Notes under the pieces: generated by a model | What the model saw: only the letters and a program-made list of their open reading frames with translations | Told to the model about the DNA's origin: nothing | Database searches by the model: none | Position numbers and translations under genes: made by a program | Shown: positions 3,746-48,281 of the stretch, piece after piece | Numbering within the stretch: position 1 is the first letter of the stretch | How the letters are laid out: every line of letters starts with the position of its first letter | IMG/VR virus record: IMGVR_UViG_3300029880_000008 | Span: 22,660 to 86,659 of that record | Strand: one strand, 5' to 3' | Source of the DNA: a virus | DNA length: 64,000 bases

Positions 3746-3863
3746 AATCCTTCATTTTATTGGTTAGACATAGAATCGGTTACCGAATCAGTAACCGACT
3801 TTTGGCTAGAATGATCCCCGGCTGGCGCCTTACTTTAATAGTTCGATCTAGAGAGCTTTAGCT

Positions 3864-3903
3864 CGAAGGATTACCTCCAGTAGTGACTGGAGGAGATCCT
3901 TCG
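3864..3903 (-). other. extended 16-bp hairpin in a 160-nt non-coding gap
   Basis: CGAAGGAT-TA-CCTCCAGT-AGTG-ACTGGAGG-AG-ATCCTTCG, read directly. It lies between the stop of 3971..5029 and the next intergenic unit. No ORF is present in 3810-3970. Confidence 0.4.
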
Positions 3904-3970
3904 TTGAAGAAGCTCTTGTGAATTTCTGCCGAGCCACCATTCTTTAGGCGGCGAACCTTACGTCTGATGA

Positions 3971-5029
3971 TTACTTGTTCTCGCTCTTGGCTTTCTTCCA
4001 TTCAAGAATCTTGCCCTGGACGCTGATATTATTGTCCTTGATAAGCTGCTTGAGTACACCGAGCATCTTCCAACCCTCTTCATCGTAGAGCTTGGCTTTA
4101 GACTCAAGTTCCTTCAGAGAATTGGCCTCTGACATCTTTCGTCCGTTCTTCATGAATCTTGCTCCATGGAACATGATGAGGTTTCTCATCGTGTAGTAGG
4201 AACCAGACCCTTTGTAAGCATGGATGAATGCATCTGCCTGCTTGGTATCCCACGCGAGATGCTTGCGGTTCTTGTTGAACTTGCGAACGGCATCGTAGAG
4301 ATCCTTGTGGTCGTCTACAGTAGCCATCTTGTTGGCAAGGTCACGGAGAGGATTGTATACCTTTCTATCCAAGTCAGCGACAAAAATGTCCTCGTTCTGA
4401 AGACGTACGTAAGGATTGCCCTTGCAGGTATGCTTATATGTCTTCTTCTTGTTTCCATCCTTGTCCTCCTTGGTAGTGTAGATGCACTTGTCGTCAATGT
4501 AGCTTCTGAGCTTTTTGATGTAGTCAATAGCCATATCGTATGCTACACAACCGTTGAACCAGCGATATCTCGCCTTTGTGTTCTCGTAGTCCTTGTGGTC
4601 ACACATCTTCATCTGAGCGTAGAGCTCATTTTCAAGCATGCGCCACTGATACTCGTAGCCCTTGCGCTGCAACACCTCGTTGAATGACAGATAACTCTTA
4701 TCCATGTCTCGCAACATGTGGAACATCTGACTCATCACCCAACGACGGAAGAGCTTCCAGTTACTTACGTATCCACCCTCTATAATCTGCCTGCCTACCG
4801 CATCGATGGTTGCATCGTCCATATCAACAGGGACAGCCGCACCATTTTCGATTTTGATAAGCTGATCATCACCGAGAGGGAAGTACTTACTTACGTCAAC
4901 GCCTGCTGCCTTAAGAGCTTCGAGACGCATCTGCGCCTTGGTCTTCTTACCTGCACAAGCTGCATTAACCTCTACATTGTTAGCTACTACCTTAAGATTC
5001 TCACCAGTGATTGTTACAATCTGCTTCAT
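3971..5029 (-). CDS. hypothetical protein (352 aa)
   Basis: Long ORF with a leader unit upstream. No family recognised. Confidence 0.7.
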   Translation of the reverse strand: MKQIVTITGENLKVVANNVEVNAACAGKKTKAQMRLEALKAAGVDVSKYFPLGDDQLIKIENGAAVPVDMDDATIDAVGRQIIEGGYVSNWKLFRRWVMSQMFHMLRDMDKSYLSFNEVLQRKGYEYQWRMLENELYAQMKMCDHKDYENTKARYRWFNGCVAYDMAIDYIKKLRSYIDDKCIYTTKEDKDGNKKKTYKHTCKGNPYVRLQNEDIFVADLDRKVYNPLRDLANKMATVDDHKDLYDAVRKFNKNRKHLAWDTKQADAFIHAYKGSGSYYTMRNLIMFHGARFMKNGRKMSEANSLKELESKAKLYDEEGWKMLGVLKQLIKDNNISVQGKILEWKKAKSENK

Positions 5030-5088: not shown

Positions 5089-5541
5089 TTACGCCCCACC
5101 CTTGTTTGGCTCAATCCAGTCTCTGAGGATAATCAGATCCTTGTCGTTCTCGGACTTCCAGAACCATCTTCCCCATCTGTTCTCCCATGCAAGGTTGCCT
5201 CTTAGAAGCTGAATCAGTATGTATAGCTCCAGCTTACATCTAGCTACCTCCCGTCGCTCACCATACATCATATCTTCGTCTGAGAGCTCTTTCTCTGGCA
5301 AAGCCTTGAAGTAGTAGCGGCGATGGGATTCAGAACGCTCAGACGGCACAGAATGCTTGTATGCCTTATATCTCTGTTCTATTGCGAACAGGACTACTGC
5401 ATGTGTCAGGTAAGGTGTATCTTTCGGCTTATCTTCCTCGGACATCACTATCTTGCCATTCACTCTACATGTTCTCTTCTGGAAGTTGATGGTGAACTTT
5501 GCACCATTCTCAACTGCATTGATAATCTCGTCGTATGTCAT
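5089..5541 (-). CDS. hypothetical protein (150 aa)
   Basis: ORF track. Leader TAACCAATACAATAGAATTATG lies upstream. Confidence 0.65.
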   Translation of the reverse strand: MTYDEIINAVENGAKFTINFQKRTCRVNGKIVMSEEDKPKDTPYLTHAVVLFAIEQRYKAYKHSVPSERSESHRRYYFKALPEKELSDEDMMYGERREVARCKLELYILIQLLRGNLAWENRWGRWFWKSENDKDLIILRDWIEPNKGGA

Positions 5542-5573: not shown

Positions 5574-5819
5574 TTATTCTTGCACTATCAAATTGGCTTC
5601 TTCGAGTTCATCCTTACTCAGTACATCTTCGTCTTCTCCGAAGTGGATATAGAATTTGTCTCCGTTCGCCCACTCCATTGCACGCATATACAACCAGTGA
5701 GCCTCTTCGATAGAGAATCCGTCTGCGCTTACTGAATCAAGCATCTCGCCCATGCAAACTTCTGACGTTTCGTACTCTTTCTTGATTTCCTCAAGCTTCT
5801 TTAGTAATCTGCTGTTCAT
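5574..5819 (-). CDS. hypothetical acidic protein (81 aa)
   Basis: ORF track. Leader TAACCAATATTTAAGAATTATG lies upstream. Confidence 0.6.
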   Translation of the reverse strand: MNSRLLKKLEEIKKEYETSEVCMGEMLDSVSADGFSIEEAHWLYMRAMEWANGDKFYIHFGEDEDVLSKDELEEANLIVQE

Positions 5820-5869
5820 AATTCTTAAATATTGGTTAATGGGAATGCGCTCAGAGAATCTGTTGCGTA

Positions 5870-7013
5870 ACTATAAGGTCTTGATTAATACTGTATCTGA
5901 GTCCTGACGGATCCAGGTAATCACCTGGATTCTCAGGATGGTTGATACCGTATTGTACAATCTATTCTCCTTGCGCACCATATCCGGCTCGCAATAACCT
6001 AGACTTATCTCATGTATTATGTTGCATGGATATATGTTCTCGATTCGGTCCCGTGACTGGATACCTGTGCCTGCGGAGATATCGGCAGGCACAGGTATTC
6101 CACCTTACGGGATATTAAACCTCATACTCTTGATAAGTCGTGATGCAATTCACATGGTTGTTTGTAGGTACACTCATAGGTCTGTTGTCTTGCTACAGGC
6201 TGATGATTGGAACCAGCTGGGTTTACGCGGGGAGCATCGTTGCTCTAAGGATGACTCCCCGCGTTATTTACCCAGCGGGTATAAATACGCAACCTCCTTG
6301 TGTACCTCGTTTGGCAATAACGTTGTCTTCATCTGAGAGTGTGGCACGTAGCTATAGCAGCTTGATTCGAGGGCTGTTGTAAGTCGCCGGATGGCACTGG
6401 GATTCCAGTGAAGGCCGGCGGCATGTAAACAGCACTATAAATTCACTCTCCTCTGAAGACTACCCTCGTGCTAGGGTAATTCCCTGACCGGTGGCTAGGC
6501 ACAATACTTTATGTTTCTGATTTGACACAGGATTCGCCAGAATAGATGATCCAGAGGTCGTAAGTAGTATACGACGCCCTCAGGATCAACTACTCTGGTT
6601 AAGAGACCTGTTGCATAAACTTCTGCCATCCATCAGGGAGTGGTGGTGTGCGCCACCGGTGGAAGTCATACGGACTGGCACATTTCTGTACTTCGTTGAT
6701 GAGCTACGCCTTGTGCGTCATACGAAGGTCCCGAGTTATCTCAAGTCGTAGACTTGGGTAACTCGAGGCCCTTCAGTTTGAGGTCTTCGAGGCGTCGCCT
6801 GAATCTATCCGTCCTTCTCCCACGTCCGTGTGCTCGGTTACAGAGTCTGCCGGTCAGAAGATACTGCGCATAGCTATATCAGATTGATAATATCCTGGTG
6901 GAGAGGATCGCTGGACCATCTCAGATTATGAGATGCTGTCCGCGATCTTCGAGACCGGATGTTTAAAACCTTGCGTCTTCATTCCGGCAAAATCCTTGCG
7001 CTAGGATGCTCAT
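5870..7013 (-). ncRNA. candidate large (~1.1 kb) structured RNA immediately 3' of the orphan reverse transcriptase
   Basis: - The only ORFs are short, random-looking ones, and the segment is visibly more G+C-rich than its flanks.
- It is packed with long perfect or near-perfect hairpins (plus-strand coordinates): 5903-5937, 6059-6101 (14 contiguous bp), 6213-6279 (nested 9+10 bp), 6383-6422, 6548-6587, 6730-6768 and 6917-6935.
- The strand is assumed to be that of the RT. The 6730-6768 stem contains a G-U wobble only in minus sense, while the 6383-6422 stem has one only in plus sense, so the strand is not settled. Confidence 0.5.
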
Positions 7014-8279
7014 CTACAGAGTATTCACCAATGTGTTGTACGCTGCCCTGCTCGTCCGCAAGGCGTTCTGAGCACAGCCGATTGATAGATACCCCTTGAT
7101 TTCGCTCTCTGTCTTACTCCTGTTAGCTTTCACGTTCCTGCCACGGCCTCGGTCTATGCAACCTACAGCCTGAGTCTTCACGTATCCGAGACCACCGACC
7201 TTTCTCTTGCCTGTCTTGACCGCACGGATGCAGTCCATGACGAATGCGTTGAGTTTGTCGATGTCCTGTTTCACGTTTATGACTGGAAGAACCTGAGTCG
7301 ACCAGGAATAATCGCAGTACCCCTTGTAGAGATACCTGTTTACTGCATTGATGGCTTTCGTCATCGTGGTGTCACGTTTCTTTATCGTCCTCTTCTCAAT
7401 CTCCTTCTGAAAGGTCTTGATGCGTGTGGACGACAAAGAGATATTGTGACCCTTGATGGAATATCCGAGGAACTTGAACCAGTGATTAGCGTCAAGATAC
7501 TCAACCTTCTTCGGATTGAGCGTCATCTGCATCATCTCCAGCTCGCTCTTCATGATATCCATGGCTTTCTCATAGTCTTCACCGACAAACAGCGTATCAT
7601 CTGAATAGCGGACGTAATATCCGTTAAGCTTAGATAGCTTGTCGTCAAGATGATAGAGAATGACATCAGCCAGCCATGCAGCAACAGAGCACCCCTGCTT
7701 GAGGGACTGATACTTCTCACAGAGGTTATTGTCCTCATCAAAATAGATATCTGTGTGATAGTAGTCACGAATGACATCTATCAGCGCAGATTTTCCGTAC
7801 TTCTCCTCTACCTTGTCAAATGCCCAGTCGATGAACCGAATGGGCACAGAATCAAAGTACTTGGAGAAGTCACCTTTCCATCCGATGATTTTTCCCTCTG
7901 CCGAGTATATTATCCGAGACACATCTTGCACCACACGACCGCAGCCGATACCCTTTTGGTATGACGTACAGCGCGGATGCACCATCTCTGGCATCAGCTC
8001 GAACAGGAGGTCGTTTGCTATACTCAAAAGGATTCTATCTACAGGCTCATTCACATAGACAGTACGGAAATCTCCGTTGTCTTTAGGAATCTTTGCTGTG
8101 TGTGGCGGCATTATCTTGTAATTGCCGCTCTTGATCCTCTGATACATAGCCAGACGAGCCTTTGGTGTTGTCAGCTGATACATTACTGCTTTGTTCATGT
8201 CCTTGAATAAGCCTTTCTCGATAGCATACTGCCATCTGGCTTTCTCAAAGAACATTTCTAGGATTCTGTCTTCATTCAT
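7014..8279 (-). CDS. reverse transcriptase, group-II-intron-like/orphan type (421 aa), not DGR-type and not retron-type
   Basis: RT motifs seen: IPKDNGDFRTVYVNEPVDRILL (motifs 1-2), GDFSKYFDSVP (motif 3), LKQGCSVAAWLADVIL (motif 4), YVRYSDDTLFVG (motif 5, YxDD) and LNPKKVEY...FKFLGYSI (motifs 6-7). It has a basic helical C-terminus and no endonuclease domain. It carries the same hairpin plus TAACCAAAACATAAGAATTATG unit as its neighbours. Confidence 0.9.
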   Translation of the reverse strand: MNEDRILEMFFEKARWQYAIEKGLFKDMNKAVMYQLTTPKARLAMYQRIKSGNYKIMPPHTAKIPKDNGDFRTVYVNEPVDRILLSIANDLLFELMPEMVHPRCTSYQKGIGCGRVVQDVSRIIYSAEGKIIGWKGDFSKYFDSVPIRFIDWAFDKVEEKYGKSALIDVIRDYYHTDIYFDEDNNLCEKYQSLKQGCSVAAWLADVILYHLDDKLSKLNGYYVRYSDDTLFVGEDYEKAMDIMKSELEMMQMTLNPKKVEYLDANHWFKFLGYSIKGHNISLSSTRIKTFQKEIEKRTIKKRDTTMTKAINAVNRYLYKGYCDYSWSTQVLPVINVKQDIDKLNAFVMDCIRAVKTGKRKVGGLGYVKTQAVGCIDRGRGRNVKANRSKTESEIKGYLSIGCAQNALRTSRAAYNTLVNTL

Positions 8280-8541: not shown

Positions 8542-8769
8542 TTAGTCGATGTGCTGGAGTGCTACGCTGTCATCTTCTTCGGATTCTCTCCAGTACTCCT
8601 GATCTGGTTCGATCTCGATAACCTCACCTGAGAAATTGTCAGCGTCAAGAATAATATCGCTATTATTATAGGCATCCTGCACTTTCTGTACGGCTTCATT
8701 CTCACTCTCAGCATCAACGCTGACTACCTTGTTCAAATGTTCTGTGACTGATACGTAATATCTCTTCAT
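8542..8769 (-). CDS. hypothetical acidic protein (75 aa)
   Basis: ORF-track 8542..8889 trimmed to the ATG (MKRYYVSV) that carries the leader TAACCAAATTATTAAAGATTATG. Confidence 0.55.
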   Translation of the reverse strand: MKRYYVSVTEHLNKVVSVDAESENEAVQKVQDAYNNSDIILDADNFSGEVIEIEPDQEYWRESEEDDSVALQHID

Positions 8770-8798
8770 AATCTTTAATAATTTGGTTAATGATGTCA

Positions 8799-8814
8799 GA
8801 GGGATTGCTCCCTC
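8799..8814 (-). promoter_or_regulatory. representative intergenic hairpin of the repeated unit
   Basis: GAGGGA-ttgc-TCCCTC followed by CGTTTTTAGGCTA on the plus strand. The TTGC loop is shared with the hairpin at 8518-8533. Confidence 0.5.
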
Positions 8815-8819
8815 CGTTT

Positions 8820-9077
8820 TTAGGCTAATGCGTTCAATACTCTGTGGGCGTTGTATGCGACAGGATTGCTGTACTTTGCTTTCTCCCACTTTTTACGCTC
8901 ACAAACTTTCAGGCAATACTCATGTGCTATATTCTCTGATAGTGCATCGAACGTGTTGTGTGTAATATCTGATGGCTTACCGAAATAAACTCTGTAACCA
9001 TCCCTGTAGCATACTATACGTCTGCCCAGTCTGTAGATGGTTCTACTGCCCTTCTCTACAAATGTAATTCTTTCCAT
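8820..9077 (-). CDS. hypothetical protein (85 aa)
   Basis: ORF-track 8820..9149 trimmed to the ATG (MERITFVEKG) preceded by TAACCAAATACAGAGAATTATG. Confidence 0.55.
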   Translation of the reverse strand: MERITFVEKGSRTIYRLGRRIVCYRDGYRVYFGKPSDITHNTFDALSENIAHEYCLKVCERKKWEKAKYSNPVAYNAHRVLNALA

Positions 9078-21977: not shown

Positions 21978-22754
21978 TTATTTCTTTTTATTATTCTTGA
22001 ACGCAAATACTGTGTAGCAACAACACGAAACGTGAAATGGCGGATATGGATCTTTGAAAGAGTGGATGCCAGCGTCGGCTTCATTTTGACAAATATCGCA
22101 CGGATAACTGCTCCCTCTCTTGACGTAGAACCCGATAGCCTTGTTCTCCTGCCCATACTCCTGCTCTGCCTGTCCCCATGCTAAGGCAATCACCTGAGAG
22201 GCGTTTCTTACAATGTTCTGATAGGCGTTCTTGTAGTAGCCCTTTCCGTAAGAAGGAACATCGATGTTGATATCCTTTCTCTTCGCTTTGGTGATAACTG
22301 ATGTGTGATATGGGTCCTTGTAGCCGGTTCGGATAGAAGATAGGAGCTGCTGGTCTGAATATCCCATAAGAGTACCCGCCTTGATCATCCTTACAATATC
22401 TTCAGCAAAGTTTCCGAGATAGACAGCGTTTCTTTCAGATGTCGTCTTTCCGTAGATGTCGCTGACGAGAAATGATTCTATATTCTCGCTGTCAATCCCG
22501 AGAATCTTGCACGAAGCCTTGGAGTAAGCAGAGATGTAGCTATTGATACTCTCCTCTGCATCAGCAGTAACATTCTTGGCGTAAGAGAGCAGGGCTGACT
22601 CGTTTGTGAGCCTGCCCGCACCTCTGTATCGCTTACTTGCGGCAATTATTTTCTGTGTCGATTTCCAGAGAATATCTGCAACATGGTCCTCGCAGTTTCG
22701 GATTGCCTGCAAGCGCTTCCTGCTGTAATCGACAGAACGTTTTAACTCATCCAT
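21978..22754 (-). CDS. head morphogenesis protein, SPP1 gp7 / Mu F-like
   Basis: It sits directly after the portal gene. The C-terminal signature SSYPCDICQNEADAGIHSFKDPYPPFHVSCCCY matches the conserved C..C...PP.H..C.C of the Phage_Mu_F family. Confidence 0.8.
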   Translation of the reverse strand: MDELKRSVDYSRKRLQAIRNCEDHVADILWKSTQKIIAASKRYRGAGRLTNESALLSYAKNVTADAEESINSYISAYSKASCKILGIDSENIESFLVSDIYGKTTSERNAVYLGNFAEDIVRMIKAGTLMGYSDQQLLSSIRTGYKDPYHTSVITKAKRKDINIDVPSYGKGYYKNAYQNIVRNASQVIALAWGQAEQEYGQENKAIGFYVKRGSSYPCDICQNEADAGIHSFKDPYPPFHVSCCCYTVFAFKNNKKK

Positions 22755-45053: not shown

Positions 45054-46277
45054 ATGGGTGTAAAATTAACAGAGAAACAAGTCGTGTCGGCAATGAATGC
45101 CGACCAGACCTTTCTGATTGTTGCCGATGGTGCTCTTCGTAGATTAAGCCTCGGTGACCTTCAGAAGATGATGGGTAATAATATCTTCTACCCTACAATC
45201 ACTTTGGAGCAGTCTTCAAATCCGAAGTTTGATTTACCTACACCATTTATGGCTAGCATGTATCAGAGAGCGATGGGTGGATATATGATGAAGGTAGTTA
45301 ACGGTAAGGTGTATGCTGCAAAGCTAAACCCTAGTAACTGGGAGTTCTTTGCTGACGGAACACAGGTGGATGATGCCTCTAAGTATGAGACGATGGTTCA
45401 TCTTCCCGATTGCCATTTCAAGGCTGATAATAAGACTTTGCAATTCGGTGGTCTATTCCCTATCTCAGGTGGCAAAACCTTCGATTCTCCTAATTGGGTA
45501 GGTGCTTACGAAATGTATGTAGATGGTAATAGTGTAGGACATTCCATACCAAACGTTTCGCCATCGCATTCTAGGACTATGAGTAGCTTTTGGTCTTGCG
45601 CACAAAAGCTTGGTTCTAAATTCGGTCTTGCTAACTACGGATTTCAATGCCTTATAGAAGCACTGTATCAGGTAAGTTTTGGCAATCTCAATAGCTCAGC
45701 CGTTATAGGTTCGGGATTCCAAAGCTCATCGTGGGAAGCATGTCGTGATGTACCGATGGGTAAGTGTATATCTCTCGGTGATGGTAGCGGTAAGGTGCTC
45801 TATAACGATGCTACTCTCGGTAATCAATACCCTGTCAAATTATTTGGCTTTGAGGATTTATGGGGTAAGCTTTGGGAGTTCCGTCCAGGAATACGTTTCT
45901 ACATGGATGGAGATACCAGATACGCTGTTGTCTATAGCGGTAATCAGGTAAGTAATACGGAAAATGGGCGAAAATTTACCATTCCGTCATCAGCTAATGG
46001 AGAGTTTATTACACGAAAGACACTGGGTGCATATTGGGATGCGTTTCCGCAAGCAGTAGGAGGCGGTGATAGCACGTACTACTGCGATGGATTCTGGGCT
46101 TCGATAAATGGCGAGCTGCTGTACGTTGGGGGTTACGCTAACGCCGGGTCGCGATGCGGTCTTTCGTCTGCGTCCTCGAACGACGGTTTCTCGCTCTCGT
46201 GGCCGAGCATCGGCGCTCGCTTGGCTTTCTACGGAAACCCGACAATCGTGAGCGGTTCGGAGCTCATGGCGATGTGA
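45054..46277 (+). CDS. DGR target protein: receptor-binding tail fibre with C-terminal CLec/FGE-type variable domain
   Basis: 407 aa. The C-terminus GELLYVGGYANAGSRCGLSSASSNDGFSLSWPSIGARLAFYG contains the VR and ends in an IGARLA (GFR-like) motif typical of DGR CLec-fold targets. Confidence 0.85.
   Translation: MGVKLTEKQVVSAMNADQTFLIVADGALRRLSLGDLQKMMGNNIFYPTITLEQSSNPKFDLPTPFMASMYQRAMGGYMMKVVNGKVYAAKLNPSNWEFFADGTQVDDASKYETMVHLPDCHFKADNKTLQFGGLFPISGGKTFDSPNWVGAYEMYVDGNSVGHSIPNVSPSHSRTMSSFWSCAQKLGSKFGLANYGFQCLIEALYQVSFGNLNSSAVIGSGFQSSSWEACRDVPMGKCISLGDGSGKVLYNDATLGNQYPVKLFGFEDLWGKLWEFRPGIRFYMDGDTRYAVVYSGNQVSNTENGRKFTIPSSANGEFITRKTLGAYWDAFPQAVGGGDSTYYCDGFWASINGELLYVGGYANAGSRCGLSSASSNDGFSLSWPSIGARLAFYGNPTIVSGSELMAM
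46113..46232 (+). repeat. DGR variable repeat (VR)
   Basis: It aligns without gaps over 120 nt to 46488-46607. There are 18 mismatches and every one is at an adenine of the TR. It starts in frame at a codon boundary of the target gene. Confidence 0.95.
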
Positions 46278-46279
46278 GA

Positions 46280-46294
46280 CAACGCCTAGCGTTG
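46280..46294 (+). other. short hairpin just after the target stop codon
   Basis: CAACGC-cta-GCGTTG. DGR targets often carry a hairpin 3' of the VR. Confidence 0.35.
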
Positions 46295-46487
46295 GCTGCA
46301 CATCTGCCAGTGAGCTAGACAGAAATAGAGAATTAATAAAAATAATGTAAAACGCAAGATTGAAACTGCAAAGTTGAAATCTCCTTATAATAGGATTCGC
46401 AGAAGCACAAAAATATAAACAACCCATTTCCGTGCGATAAGATTTTCTACAACCATGGAGTGGGTGAAGAAAAGGTGATACATCATG

Positions 46488-46607
46488 GAGCTGCTGAACG
46501 TTGGGGGTAACGCTAACAACAGGTCGCAATGCGGTCTTTCGTATGCGAACTCGAACAACGGTTTCTCGAACTCGAGGACGAACATCGGCGCTCGCTTGAA
46601 TTACTAC
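46488..46607 (+). repeat. DGR template repeat (TR)
   Basis: It would encode ELLNVGGNANNRSQCGLSYANSNNGFSNSRTNIGARLNYY, which is rich in AAC/Asn codons. It lies in non-coding DNA between the target and the RT. Confidence 0.95.
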
Positions 46608-46910
46608 ACAAGATTTCTATTATTAGAATGACGATATAATTTTCACTGTTCCTCGCAAGTCGTAAAGCTACGAGATAGTTTGGACGAGAGAGCACATGAT
46701 TGAACCTGTCTCAATGGAAGGATATTTATCCCGACAGAGCAAAGATTAAAGGCGTTGGGTATGAGTAGTTGGGTATGTCCTACTTGCAACAGAGTCCCCT
46801 CTCGCAAGTAAGTGATACAGTTGTACGTATGTGCCGAAAGCCAGTGAGCCGATAGTGTAGAAAGCCTATTGATAAGGAAAGCGATTTTTGAAATATTGGT
46901 TGATATAGAA
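46608..46910 (+). ncRNA. DGR spacer region of the TR-containing RNA
   Basis: About 300 nt without ORFs lie between the TR and the RT start. Small hairpins are present (for example TCGTA-aagc-TACGA). It is analogous to the Sp region of characterised DGR RNAs. Confidence 0.5.
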
Positions 46911-48281
46911 ATGACGGACACACAAGAGCTGGCGTATAAGCGAAAGGCTAAACTTCGCAAGAAGCATAGAAAGGTCAGAGTAGAGCTTGTCAGTGATATG
47001 ACTAACCTCAATATTGCGGTAAGGAAATCACGCAAGGGTAAGGAAGGCAAGAAGGGAGTTGTGATATTCGATAAAGACTATAATGGTAATCTTTTGAGAT
47101 TACAGAGAAGTCTTATAGATGGAACTTACAAGACCAGCGAAGGGCACGATTGTATGAGACGATGCCCTTGCGGTAAGGTAAGAAAGCTCCATAAGCTTCC
47201 GTACTTCCCAGACCACGTTGAGCAGCATGCCTTGATGCAAGTTCTGATGCCGCACCTTATAAGAGCTCTCTATATAGAGAGTGGGGCAAGTGTAAAAGGC
47301 AGAGGAATGATTTATGCGAAGCGCAGAACAGAACGATGGATAGACGAGAATAAGTCATGTGGAAGATTGTACTATTGCAAACTTGACTTCGTTAAATTCT
47401 ATGAGAACGTAGACCAGCAGGAGATATACAAATCTCTGTGTGATTTCTTTACTGATAAAGGCGTTAGAAGGCTTTTGCATGAAGTTATCTTTGCCTTACC
47501 GAAAGGTCTAGGTATTGGTCTATATCCTATTCAGACCCTTACCAATTTCTACATGAGTATCTTATGTAGATTAGTATGTAGGAAATTTGATGTTAAGGTA
47601 GAAATATATTGTGATGATGTCATTATATTGGGTAAAAACAAGAAGGAAGTATGGAAAGCCATCAACTTCATATTGGAATATGCTAATAAAGTGATGCACC
47701 AGCAGTTGCACGATAATATCGGAATGCAGATAATTGATGATACGCATTTCCTTGATTTCGTAGGATACCGTTTCTACTTCAACCATACAATGTTAAGAAA
47801 GCGCATGAAAGAGAAATTCAAAAAGAAGATGCACAACCTTAAAAATCCTATGAGGAGATACCAAGTAGCTATGAGCTACAAGGGTTGGTTGATGCACTGC
47901 GATGGTTTTAATCTTTGGAAAATGATAACAAAAATGAATAGTTTTGATGATTTTAAGATGCCGCAGATTGAGGACAGAGATGCCAACGGCAAGAGAATGT
48001 TTGAAGGTCAGAGGATGAGCGCAAGCTACTTTTCCGAGAGACCTATCGTTTTCCTTGATGTTGAATTTGACGTAAACAGCAAGGTTCATAAATCGGGGAA
48101 GAGCAATGTTGTCAGCGTTGAGGAGAACGGACAGAAGTTTAAGTTCTTCACTAACAACAAGAAACTCGTAGAGCAGTTGAAATGGTGCTCAGACAATGAT
48201 AAATTCCCGTTCCTGGGAAAGTTGCGTAGAATGAATCAGAGTGGAAACCCTGATTTCAGAATTGTAGGAACAAAAGCATAA
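46911..48281 (+). CDS. DGR reverse transcriptase
   Basis: Motifs: LPYFPDHVEQHALMQVL, YYCKLDFVKFYENV, LGIGLYPIQTLTNFYM (the DGR-type IGxxxSQ-like motif 4) and YCDDVIILG (YxDD). ORF-track 46869 (TTG) is trimmed to the first ATG, so the start is uncertain. Confidence 0.9.
   Translation: MTDTQELAYKRKAKLRKKHRKVRVELVSDMTNLNIAVRKSRKGKEGKKGVVIFDKDYNGNLLRLQRSLIDGTYKTSEGHDCMRRCPCGKVRKLHKLPYFPDHVEQHALMQVLMPHLIRALYIESGASVKGRGMIYAKRRTERWIDENKSCGRLYYCKLDFVKFYENVDQQEIYKSLCDFFTDKGVRRLLHEVIFALPKGLGIGLYPIQTLTNFYMSILCRLVCRKFDVKVEIYCDDVIILGKNKKEVWKAINFILEYANKVMHQQLHDNIGMQIIDDTHFLDFVGYRFYFNHTMLRKRMKEKFKKKMHNLKNPMRRYQVAMSYKGWLMHCDGFNLWKMITKMNSFDDFKMPQIEDRDANGKRMFEGQRMSASYFSERPIVFLDVEFDVNSKVHKSGKSNVVSVEENGQKFKFFTNNKKLVEQLKWCSDNDKFPFLGKLRRMNQSGNPDFRIVGTKA

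Follow-up and report, generated by a model that had tools for sequence, protein, structure and literature searches.

Seven tandem structured RNA units downstream of a phage UG27 reverse transcriptase very probably form its template-RNA array

The stretch analyzed here, which we call the window, comprises 64,000 nucleotides (nt) of IMG/VR virus record IMGVR_UViG_3300029880_000008 (positions 22,660–86,659 of that record), and all positions below are those of the window. We conclude that its minus strand between 5861 and 7009 is very probably the template-RNA array of a phage-borne UG27 reverse transcriptase (RT) system. The array is housed by a Segatella copri phage or prophage: the window carries TerL, portal, major head, tape measure and primase genes, as in a tailed-phage genome, and the S. 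copri HDD04 chromosome encodes an RT 98% identical to that of the window. The kind of system is already known and the locus adds no new kind; its novelty is low because the UG27 system has been described. Mestre et al. (NAR 2022; PMC9226505) were the first to predict that the intergenic region of UG27 loci holds a conserved non-coding RNA (ncRNA); they also linked the accessory families RTas346 and RTas337 to UG27 and found no defence-island association for it. The preprint by Li et al. (24 Sept 2026; bioRxiv 10.64898/2026.09.22.753630) describes UG27 "variable arrays" of ~150-nt units, each with a central hairpin between UUYA and AUCNNNNNNNUANAG plus a base hairpin and a pseudoknot. It reports that in five heterologously expressed systems, one of them from the host species Alistipes putredinis, the RT and two accessory proteins, sORF and bORF, were jointly needed for complementary DNA (cDNA), and that the products tested were single-stranded DNA (ssDNA) hairpins of 50–100 nt, each central hairpin having been copied from AUC to UUYA.

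Read along the minus strand, the operon of the window runs from the RT through seven tandem ncRNA units, an unrelated gene of 81 amino acids (aa), the sORF (RTas346) and the bORF (RTas337) to a solitary unit. The three proteins of the system are as follows.

7014–8279, minus strand: UG27 reverse transcriptase, 421 aa (PADLOC RT_UG27, Pfam RVT_1)
5089–5541, minus strand: sORF, small accessory protein of Mestre cluster 346, 150 aa (PADLOC RTas346, E-value 1.9e-61, full length)
3971–5029, minus strand: bORF, large accessory protein of Mestre cluster 337, 352 aa (PADLOC RTas337, E-value 2.2e-112)

The RT matched the PADLOC RT_UG27 profile almost end to end (E-value 4.2e-227, 752 bits, residues 3–421 on profile positions 2–420 of 420), the next-best PADLOC profiles being RT_UG26 (5e-33), Drt9 and RT_UG17, and it also matched Pfam RVT_1 (5.9e-18). 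Its translation has the active site YSDD, within YVRYSDDTLFV, which is the motif mutated to YSAA in the preprint (10.64898/2026.09.22.753630). Both accessory proteins are conserved as neighbours of the RT in Bacteroides phage BS-TP1 and MT835776, the sORF at 46% and the bORF at 40% identity. For the bORF we identified no Pfam, PHROG or PDB profile match, and an AlphaFold2 model from a shallow alignment had a pLDDT (predicted local distance difference test) of 52.9. Relatives of the RT are encoded on 411 IMG/VR contigs, and the protein cluster that contains it has 6,526 member sequences; UG27 enzymes are among the most abundant reverse transcriptases of human-gut phages.

A first-pass annotation of this DNA, made from the letters and the open reading frames (ORFs), had singled out the segment 5870–7013, bounded by the stop codon of the 421-aa RT ORF and by the 81-aa ORF, as a dense set of perfect stems beyond what coding or random DNA would give, and had tied it to the upstream RT on the same strand. 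This was borne out in each respect, and the region is densely structured and non-coding. The minus strand of the 1000 nt at 5871–6870 folds at -376 kcal/mol against -289 ± 7 for shuffled sequences (z = -12.45) and the plus strand is equally stable (z = -12.76), compared with z = -5.78 for a control of 1000 nt inside the RT gene. The G+C content is 0.48–0.51 in the array and 0.42–0.44 in its flanks, and the sign of the GC skew flips. Three ORFs of 73–105 aa within the region are broken by frameshifts or stops in most of 16 aligned relatives. An inverted-repeat scan recovered all of the stems that had been listed, and these proved to be the apices of central hairpins, one per unit, while the GGTGG-tgtgcg-CCACC element, which lies at 6642–6657, is the base hairpin of unit 3. 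The arms of the inverted repeats (plus-strand positions) are:

5911–5918 with 5923–5930
6061–6077 with 6082–6098
6225–6234 with 6255–6264
6385–6400 with 6405–6420
6537–6561 with 6574–6598
6727–6738 with 6759–6770
6903–6911 with 6942–6950

The seven tandem units, named U1 to U7 in order from the RT, measure ~140–165 nt each (roughly 135–167 nt being typical of UG27 units) and lie on the minus strand with an AUC-to-AUC spacing of 155–188 nt. Each follows one plan: a small base hairpin, a purine-rich linker, UUYA (present in six of the seven), a long central hairpin, the motif AUC-N7-UANAG and, beginning 3 nt after UANAG, a 5-nt partner that complements the loop of the base hairpin 104–133 nt upstream of AUC, so as to form a pseudoknot. 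The motif is exact at 6888, 6700, 6521, 6366 and 5885, with one mismatch each at 6207 and 6044. In the list below, R1 is the covariance model, and the helix numbers are those of the covariation test, that are both described further on.

6864–7009, minus strand: U1; base hairpin 7007–6992 with loop AGCGCA; UUUA 6967–6964; AUC 6888; UAUAG; partner UGCGC 6870–6866; R1 38.1 bits, E-value 6e-8; helices 1–4
6676–6841, minus strand: U2; base hairpin 6837–6826 with loop AGCACA; UUCA 6803–6800; template of 106 nt; AUC 6700; partner UGUGC 6682–6678; R1 40.3 bits, E-value 2e-8; helices 5–9
6497–6659, minus strand: U3; base hairpin 6657–6642, GGUGG-CGCACA-CCACC; UUUA 6619–6616; AUC 6521; partner UGUGC 6503–6499; R1 26.0 bits, E-value 2e-5; helices 10–15
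6342–6479, minus strand: U4; base hairpin 6479–6460 with loop AGCACG; UUUA 6441–6438; AUC 6366; partner CGUGC 6348–6344; R1 35.5 bits, E-value 2e-7; helices 16–21
6183–6325, minus strand: U5, a degraded copy; base hairpin 6322–6308 with loop AUUGCCA; UUUA 6285–6282; AUC 6207; UGUAG in place of UANAG; partner GACAA 6189–6185, with four of five pseudoknot pairs; not detected by R1
6020–6156, minus strand: U6; base hairpin 6154–6139 with loop AUUGCA; UUUA 6119–6116; AUC 6044, then UAUAU; partner UGCAA 6026–6022; R1 25.5 bits, E-value 3e-5; helices 26–30
5861–6002, minus strand: U7; base hairpin 5999–5986 with loop AUUGCG; UUGUA 5960–5956; AUC 5885; partner CGCAA 5867–5863; apex CCAGGUGAUUACCUGG; R1 26.9 bits, E-value 1.5e-5; helices 31–34

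The pseudoknot pairs, given as loop sequence and partner, are:

U1: GCGCA with UGCGC, five of five pairs
U2 and U3: GCACA with UGUGC, five of five pairs each
U4: GCACG with CGUGC, five of five pairs
U5: UUGCC with GACAA, four of five pairs
U6: UUGCA with UGCAA, five of five pairs
U7: UUGCG with CGCAA, five of five pairs

Thus 34 of 35 possible pseudoknot pairs are formed in the window, by five different compensatory 5-mers. Across three arrays a perfect complement was present in 17 of 20 units, compared with 16 of 336 mismatched pairings (4.8%) and 8.8% of shuffles. Arrays were found in 29 of 31 bacterial-genome loci whose RTs are 58–98% identical to that of the window, with the pseudoknot complement in 130 of 180 units; that of Alistipes putredinis DSM 17216 has the same geometry, with seven units and a distance of 136 nt from the RT stop to the first AUC. 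The weight of AUC-N7-UANAG lies in its spacing, its strand and the features linked to it rather than in its count: apart from the array sites, no exact hit in the 64-kb window has a neighbour at a distance of 120–210 nt, and this combination of exact motif and neighbour was specific within the window. A scan for motif plus pseudoknot with one mismatch allowed was unspecific (22 hits in the window, 12–27 in shuffles).

The folding of the array was also examined in its relatives. An alignment by MAFFT of the seven paralogous units was useless for structure because the 3' motif alone aligned, and we used orthologous arrays and a separate unit alignment instead. The first of these (A2) comprises 17 colinear arrays, on which a structure of base hairpins, central hairpins and pseudoknots was tested unit by unit: 86.5% of its cells are paired, against ~36% with slid partners, and it has 71 pair changes on both sides, against 16–28 with slid partners and 43.7 ± 3.4 in shuffles, none of 500 of which reached 71. 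In U6 alone, 11 of 20 distal pairs have changed on both sides. The stems are thus kept by compensatory changes; neither an absence of excess stability nor uncompensated disruption of the stems was what we found, since the folding excess and the compensatory changes are both observed. Paired cells include 244 G-U against 181 A-C, and the row of the window has eight G-U among 266 pairs; so few G-U pairs fit stems that have to form in the RNA and again in the DNA copied from it, and they explain why the two strands have equal z-scores.

The same relatives showed the units to be modules. On 80 IMG/VR contigs the RT protein is 97–99% identical to that of the window, with arrays only 76–92% identical in DNA, and among 75 close relatives there are eight units at 53 loci, seven (as here) at 20, and six and three at one locus each, the extra unit of the eight-unit arrays lying between U6 and U7. 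As unit number varies in this way among close relatives, the units are modules and not parts of one fold. The covariance model R1, which was built from 74 units (alignment A4) of loci with RTs at most 70% identical to that of the window and used no window sequence, recovered U1–U4, U6 and U7 at full length (137–166 nt; E-values 2e-8 to 3e-5) together with the solitary unit, and nothing else in the window scored above 11 bits.

Nucleotide diversity (pi) among these phages was 0.056 in the RT gene, 0.108 in the array scaffold and 0.245 in the array templates (0.35–0.41 at their apices), compared with 0.167–0.304 at four-fold degenerate sites of three genes. The scaffold is therefore conserved, and the central hairpins change at about the rate of synonymous sites with Watson-Crick pairing kept; because template diversity is close to that of four-fold sites, we take the template sequence to be essentially free to drift as long as its pairing is kept. 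This range of four-fold values does not demonstrate diversifying selection on the templates, and across distant arrays conservation of whole templates is essentially absent.

The solitary unit and a hairpin directly after it lie downstream of the bORF.

3823–3945, minus strand: solitary unit (R1 20.7 bits, E-value 3e-4); base hairpin GCCGCC-UAAAGAAU-GGUGGC; UUCA 3922–3919; AUC 3847–3845; UAAAG 3837–3833, an exact AUC-N7-UAAAG
3774–3800, minus strand: 12-bp hairpin directly after the solitary unit (fold z = -4.08), almost invariant in relatives

The template of the solitary unit is a 78-nt hairpin (fold z = -6.64), and the unit adjoins the bORF, with compensatory changes, in all 79 relatives that match the query region. 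For this unit neither a pseudoknot nor a pairing of the N7 segment was supported by variation among relatives. The preprint (10.64898/2026.09.22.753630) describes both further units in nearby intergenic regions and a class of units that have no pseudoknot, and the solitary unit may correspond to that class. The transcription unit may end at the 12-bp hairpin, which has no U tract.

Several points count against this assignment or temper it. AUC-N7-UANAG on its own, with one mismatch allowed, occurs no more often in the window than expected (220 found, 246 expected). The motif and pseudoknot of U5 are degraded and R1 misses this unit, the counterparts of which in most relatives of A2 are canonical (UAGAG or UAUAG, with GGCAA); U7 has UUGUA and not UUYA, U6 has UAUAU and not UANAG, and for the solitary unit no pseudoknot partner could be detected. 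The preprint also mentions a lower stem and an asymmetric internal loop, which could not be pinned down here, as the candidate pairings for the lower stem (the linker with N7/UANAG, and UUYA with the AA before UC) were inconsistent between units, being either unit-specific or invariant. The published UG27 covariance models are absent from Rfam 15, and recognition of the units rests on our own R1. Lastly, that cDNA is synthesized at this locus is inferred by homology with the five tested systems only.

The reading of the segment that accompanied its discovery was of a single ornate RNA, in the size class of GOLLD, ROOL and OLE, i.e., one large, globally folded structural or catalytic molecule. 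GOLLD and ROOL are often found in phages, as this segment is, and a stretch of 1.1 kb that folds very stably (z -12.45) would suit such an RNA, so that the part of that reading which called for a dense, structured, non-coding RNA has held. Its other part has not: Rfam gave no GOLLD, ROOL, OLE or other relevant match at gathering score, nor at E-values up to 10, and the segment resolves into modules. In the minimum free energy structure 368 of 377 pairs are local, and the nine that span >200 nt all join the base-hairpin regions of U1 and U7. Moreover, a module with the same motifs is repeated seven times, whole units are gained or lost among near-identical phages, and the single-unit model R1 recognises six units separately. 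We hence give a single global fold very little credence, and "array of modules" should replace "one big RNA" as the description of the segment; raw sequence alone can nonetheless flag RNAs of this class.

Retron-like elements, in which an msr/msd RNA gives rise to branched multicopy single-stranded DNA (msDNA) primed from the 2'-OH of a conserved guanosine, also have an RT adjoining a structured ncRNA, and the products that the preprint reports for homologous systems, short ssDNA hairpins, resemble msDNA stems. The RT has weak matches to retron profiles (RT_Ec107-like, E-value 1e-11; retron St85, 42.5 bits), but against 752 bits for UG27 no retron model exceeds 42.6 bits and St85 misses its cutoff of 235 by a wide margin. 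The ncRNA is, furthermore, downstream of the RT and an array of seven units plus one, no Rfam retron family was matched at gathering score or at E-values up to 10, and homologues require, according to the preprint, two dedicated accessory proteins; a retron is accordingly very unlikely here. A template of a diversity-generating retroelement (DGR), or the remnant of a group II intron, belonging to the UG27 RT would draw on the resemblance of this RT to group II intron RTs (TIGR04416, 100.9 bits), on the central hairpins being the most variable part of the locus and on the use of a DGR by the same phage elsewhere in the window. Yet the TIGR04416 cutoff is 300, far above that score, and Rfam matched no RNA domains of an intron. 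In the templates variation is equal at all four bases (0.60–0.66), so there is no adenine bias and no DGR-type mutagenesis. No copy of a template exists elsewhere in the window (the best match being 13 nt, E-value 0.056), template complementarity to the rest of the phage genome is at chance level only, and the true DGR of the window has its own RT, template repeat (TR) and variable repeat (VR) at 46.1–48.3 kb. We consider the likelihood of either origin to be close to negligible.

The short repeats that had been noted with the stems are not the conserved signals of the template-RNA array. CCTTGCG occurs, as stated in the first-pass annotation, at 5969, 6969 and 6994, and had been offered as a marker of the segment's ends and, as CGCAAGG, as a possible priming or RT-binding site. 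We could not uphold these roles: the heptamer is over-represented throughout the window (16 copies, 4.7 expected), and the conserved signals of each unit are others, namely AUC-N7-UANAG, UUYA and the pseudoknot. Of its copies, CGCAAGG 7000–6994 is the loop and 3' arm of the U1 base hairpin, that at 6975–6969 is part of a linker and has not been kept in the relatives of A2, and that at 5975–5969 lies in the purine-rich linker of U7. The direct repeat GTCATACG is likewise present (6665–6672 and 6717–6724, plus strand, 52 nt apart); in RNA sense it reads CGUAUGAC, with one copy in the 3' arm of the U2 template and the other just 5' of the U3 base hairpin. It has no counterpart in the other units of the array, and its four copies in the window (1.3 expected) are barely above chance, this count being reached by five of 100 shuffles.

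By homology with the tested systems, the RT and both accessory proteins would begin to make DNA at each unit's AUC, and the RT would copy the central hairpin and stop after UUYA, so that one short single-stranded DNA hairpin would be released per unit. We suggest that the pseudoknot, the base hairpin and the AUC...UANAG segment may form a platform for protein recognition that positions AUC at the active site. The array would be co-transcribed with the RT, as no terminator-like minus-strand site was found between the two; no minus-strand terminator was seen in the longer interval between the RT and the sORF either. A scan for sigma-70 promoters, which is not expected to be informative for Bacteroidota, gave seven where 7.0 were expected. 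The predicted cDNAs, which have plus-strand sequence and lengths of 78–106 nt, are:

6886–6967, plus-strand sequence: predicted cDNA of U1
6698–6803, plus-strand sequence: predicted cDNA of U2
6519–6619, plus-strand sequence: predicted cDNA of U3
6364–6441, plus-strand sequence: predicted cDNA of U4
6205–6285, plus-strand sequence: predicted cDNA of U5
6042–6119, plus-strand sequence: predicted cDNA of U6
5883–5960, plus-strand sequence: predicted cDNA of U7
3845–3922, plus-strand sequence: predicted cDNA of the solitary unit

For the seven predicted from the array, folding as DNA gives hairpins (z -4.95 to -8.94). Because U5 is degraded its product would probably be weak, and U5 could be used as a natural internal negative control for cDNA synthesis. 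With exact intervals for the predicted cDNAs, a solitary unit lacking the pseudoknot and a co-resident DGR, the locus is a convenient test case.

As to what such products might do, we considered the array as a modular library, with fast turnover, of DNA decoys or aptamers with double-stranded stems, directed against host systems that sense nucleic acids or restrict DNA; we regard this as speculative and, on balance, unlikely. Watson-Crick stems that are kept despite drift at about the synonymous rate imply that the RNA and the DNA copy both fold, which is a hint in this direction, and the gain and loss of units between near-identical phages is another. A further hint is the retention of a particular apex: among arrays with a CCWGG apex it is in the last unit in 14 of 18, including some with RTs ~68% identical to that of the window, although these loci are interrelated and not independent. 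The decoy idea is limited by the templates, which are not clearly more variable than neutral sites.

CCWGG is a site of the Dcm/EcoRII type. In the window the apex of U7 (5911–5930, plus strand) is a CCWGG-N4-8-CCWGG hairpin, and similar hairpins occur in loci L110 (5851–5891) and L082 (7942–7957), among others.

Some features of the neighbourhood and of the relatives deserve mention in their own right. The acidic 81-aa ORF between the array and the sORF (5574–5819, minus strand) had no family match; a homolog is found upstream of the RT in MT835776 and none in the 13-kb stretch of BS-TP1 that was searched, and the ORF probably does not belong to the UG27 system. An ORF at 8542–8889 (minus strand), two genes upstream of the RT, matched a DpnD/PcfM-like protein (PF14207, E-value 5e-18). 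In BS-TP1 (PQ571274.1, record positions 79351–80613, our locus L081) the UG27 RT is annotated as 'tail protein', and the unannotated gap of 1.35 kb after it holds eight units of a variant form, AUC-N8-UANAG, with N8 and not N7.

The DGR of the window, a classical one, lies in the tail-gene block (45054–48281, plus strand), and with it the phage carries two unrelated RT systems. Its repeats are 120 nt long and 85% identical; each of the 18 positions at which they differ is an adenine in the downstream copy, replaced by T, G or C six times each.

45054–46277, plus strand: ORF of 407 aa, with the variable copy at its 3' end
46113–46232, plus strand: VR
46488–46607, plus strand: TR
46869–48281, plus strand: RT of the DGR, 470 aa (phrog_1423, E-value 9e-61)

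Set against known systems, the array shares with GOLLD, ROOL and OLE their size class and high predicted stability, and with GOLLD and ROOL an association with prophages; these are, however, single global folds without an RT, whereas the array is modular, repeated and an RT template. Retrons resemble it in having an RT that makes a short ssDNA hairpin from a defined part of the structured ncRNA beside it (predicted, in the present case), but their single ncRNA lies upstream of the RT, they prime from a branching guanosine, and they have effectors and a role in host defence, while here seven units plus one lie downstream of the RT, with two unrelated accessory proteins, in a phage-encoded system. 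DGRs likewise have a phage RT that acts on a short non-coding template; they have one template repeat, a variable repeat in a target gene and adenine-specific mutagenesis, in contrast to the array, with neither a partner copy nor an adenine bias. The RTs of DRT2 and DRT9 are, like UG27, class 2 UG/Abi enzymes that synthesize DNA on an ncRNA template. DRT2 and DRT9 each use a single upstream ncRNA and serve host defence. According to the preprint (10.64898/2026.09.22.753630), other class 2 UG RTs make long, concatemeric cDNAs, in contrast to the discrete 50–100-nt hairpins from many units of UG27. From the published UG27 systems nothing essential differs, the local departures being the 81-aa insert, the degraded U5 and the solitary unit with no detectable pseudoknot. 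The locus agrees with them in the RT group, in both accessory proteins, in its location in a phage or prophage of gut Bacteroidota (UG27 systems being encoded in those of gut Bacteroidota or Bacillota) and in a long intergenic array directly after the RT; and also in unit size, in AUC-N7-UANAG and UUYA around a central hairpin, in the base hairpin and pseudoknot, in units of diverse sequence and conserved shape that are gained and lost, and in an extra unit in a neighbouring intergenic region.

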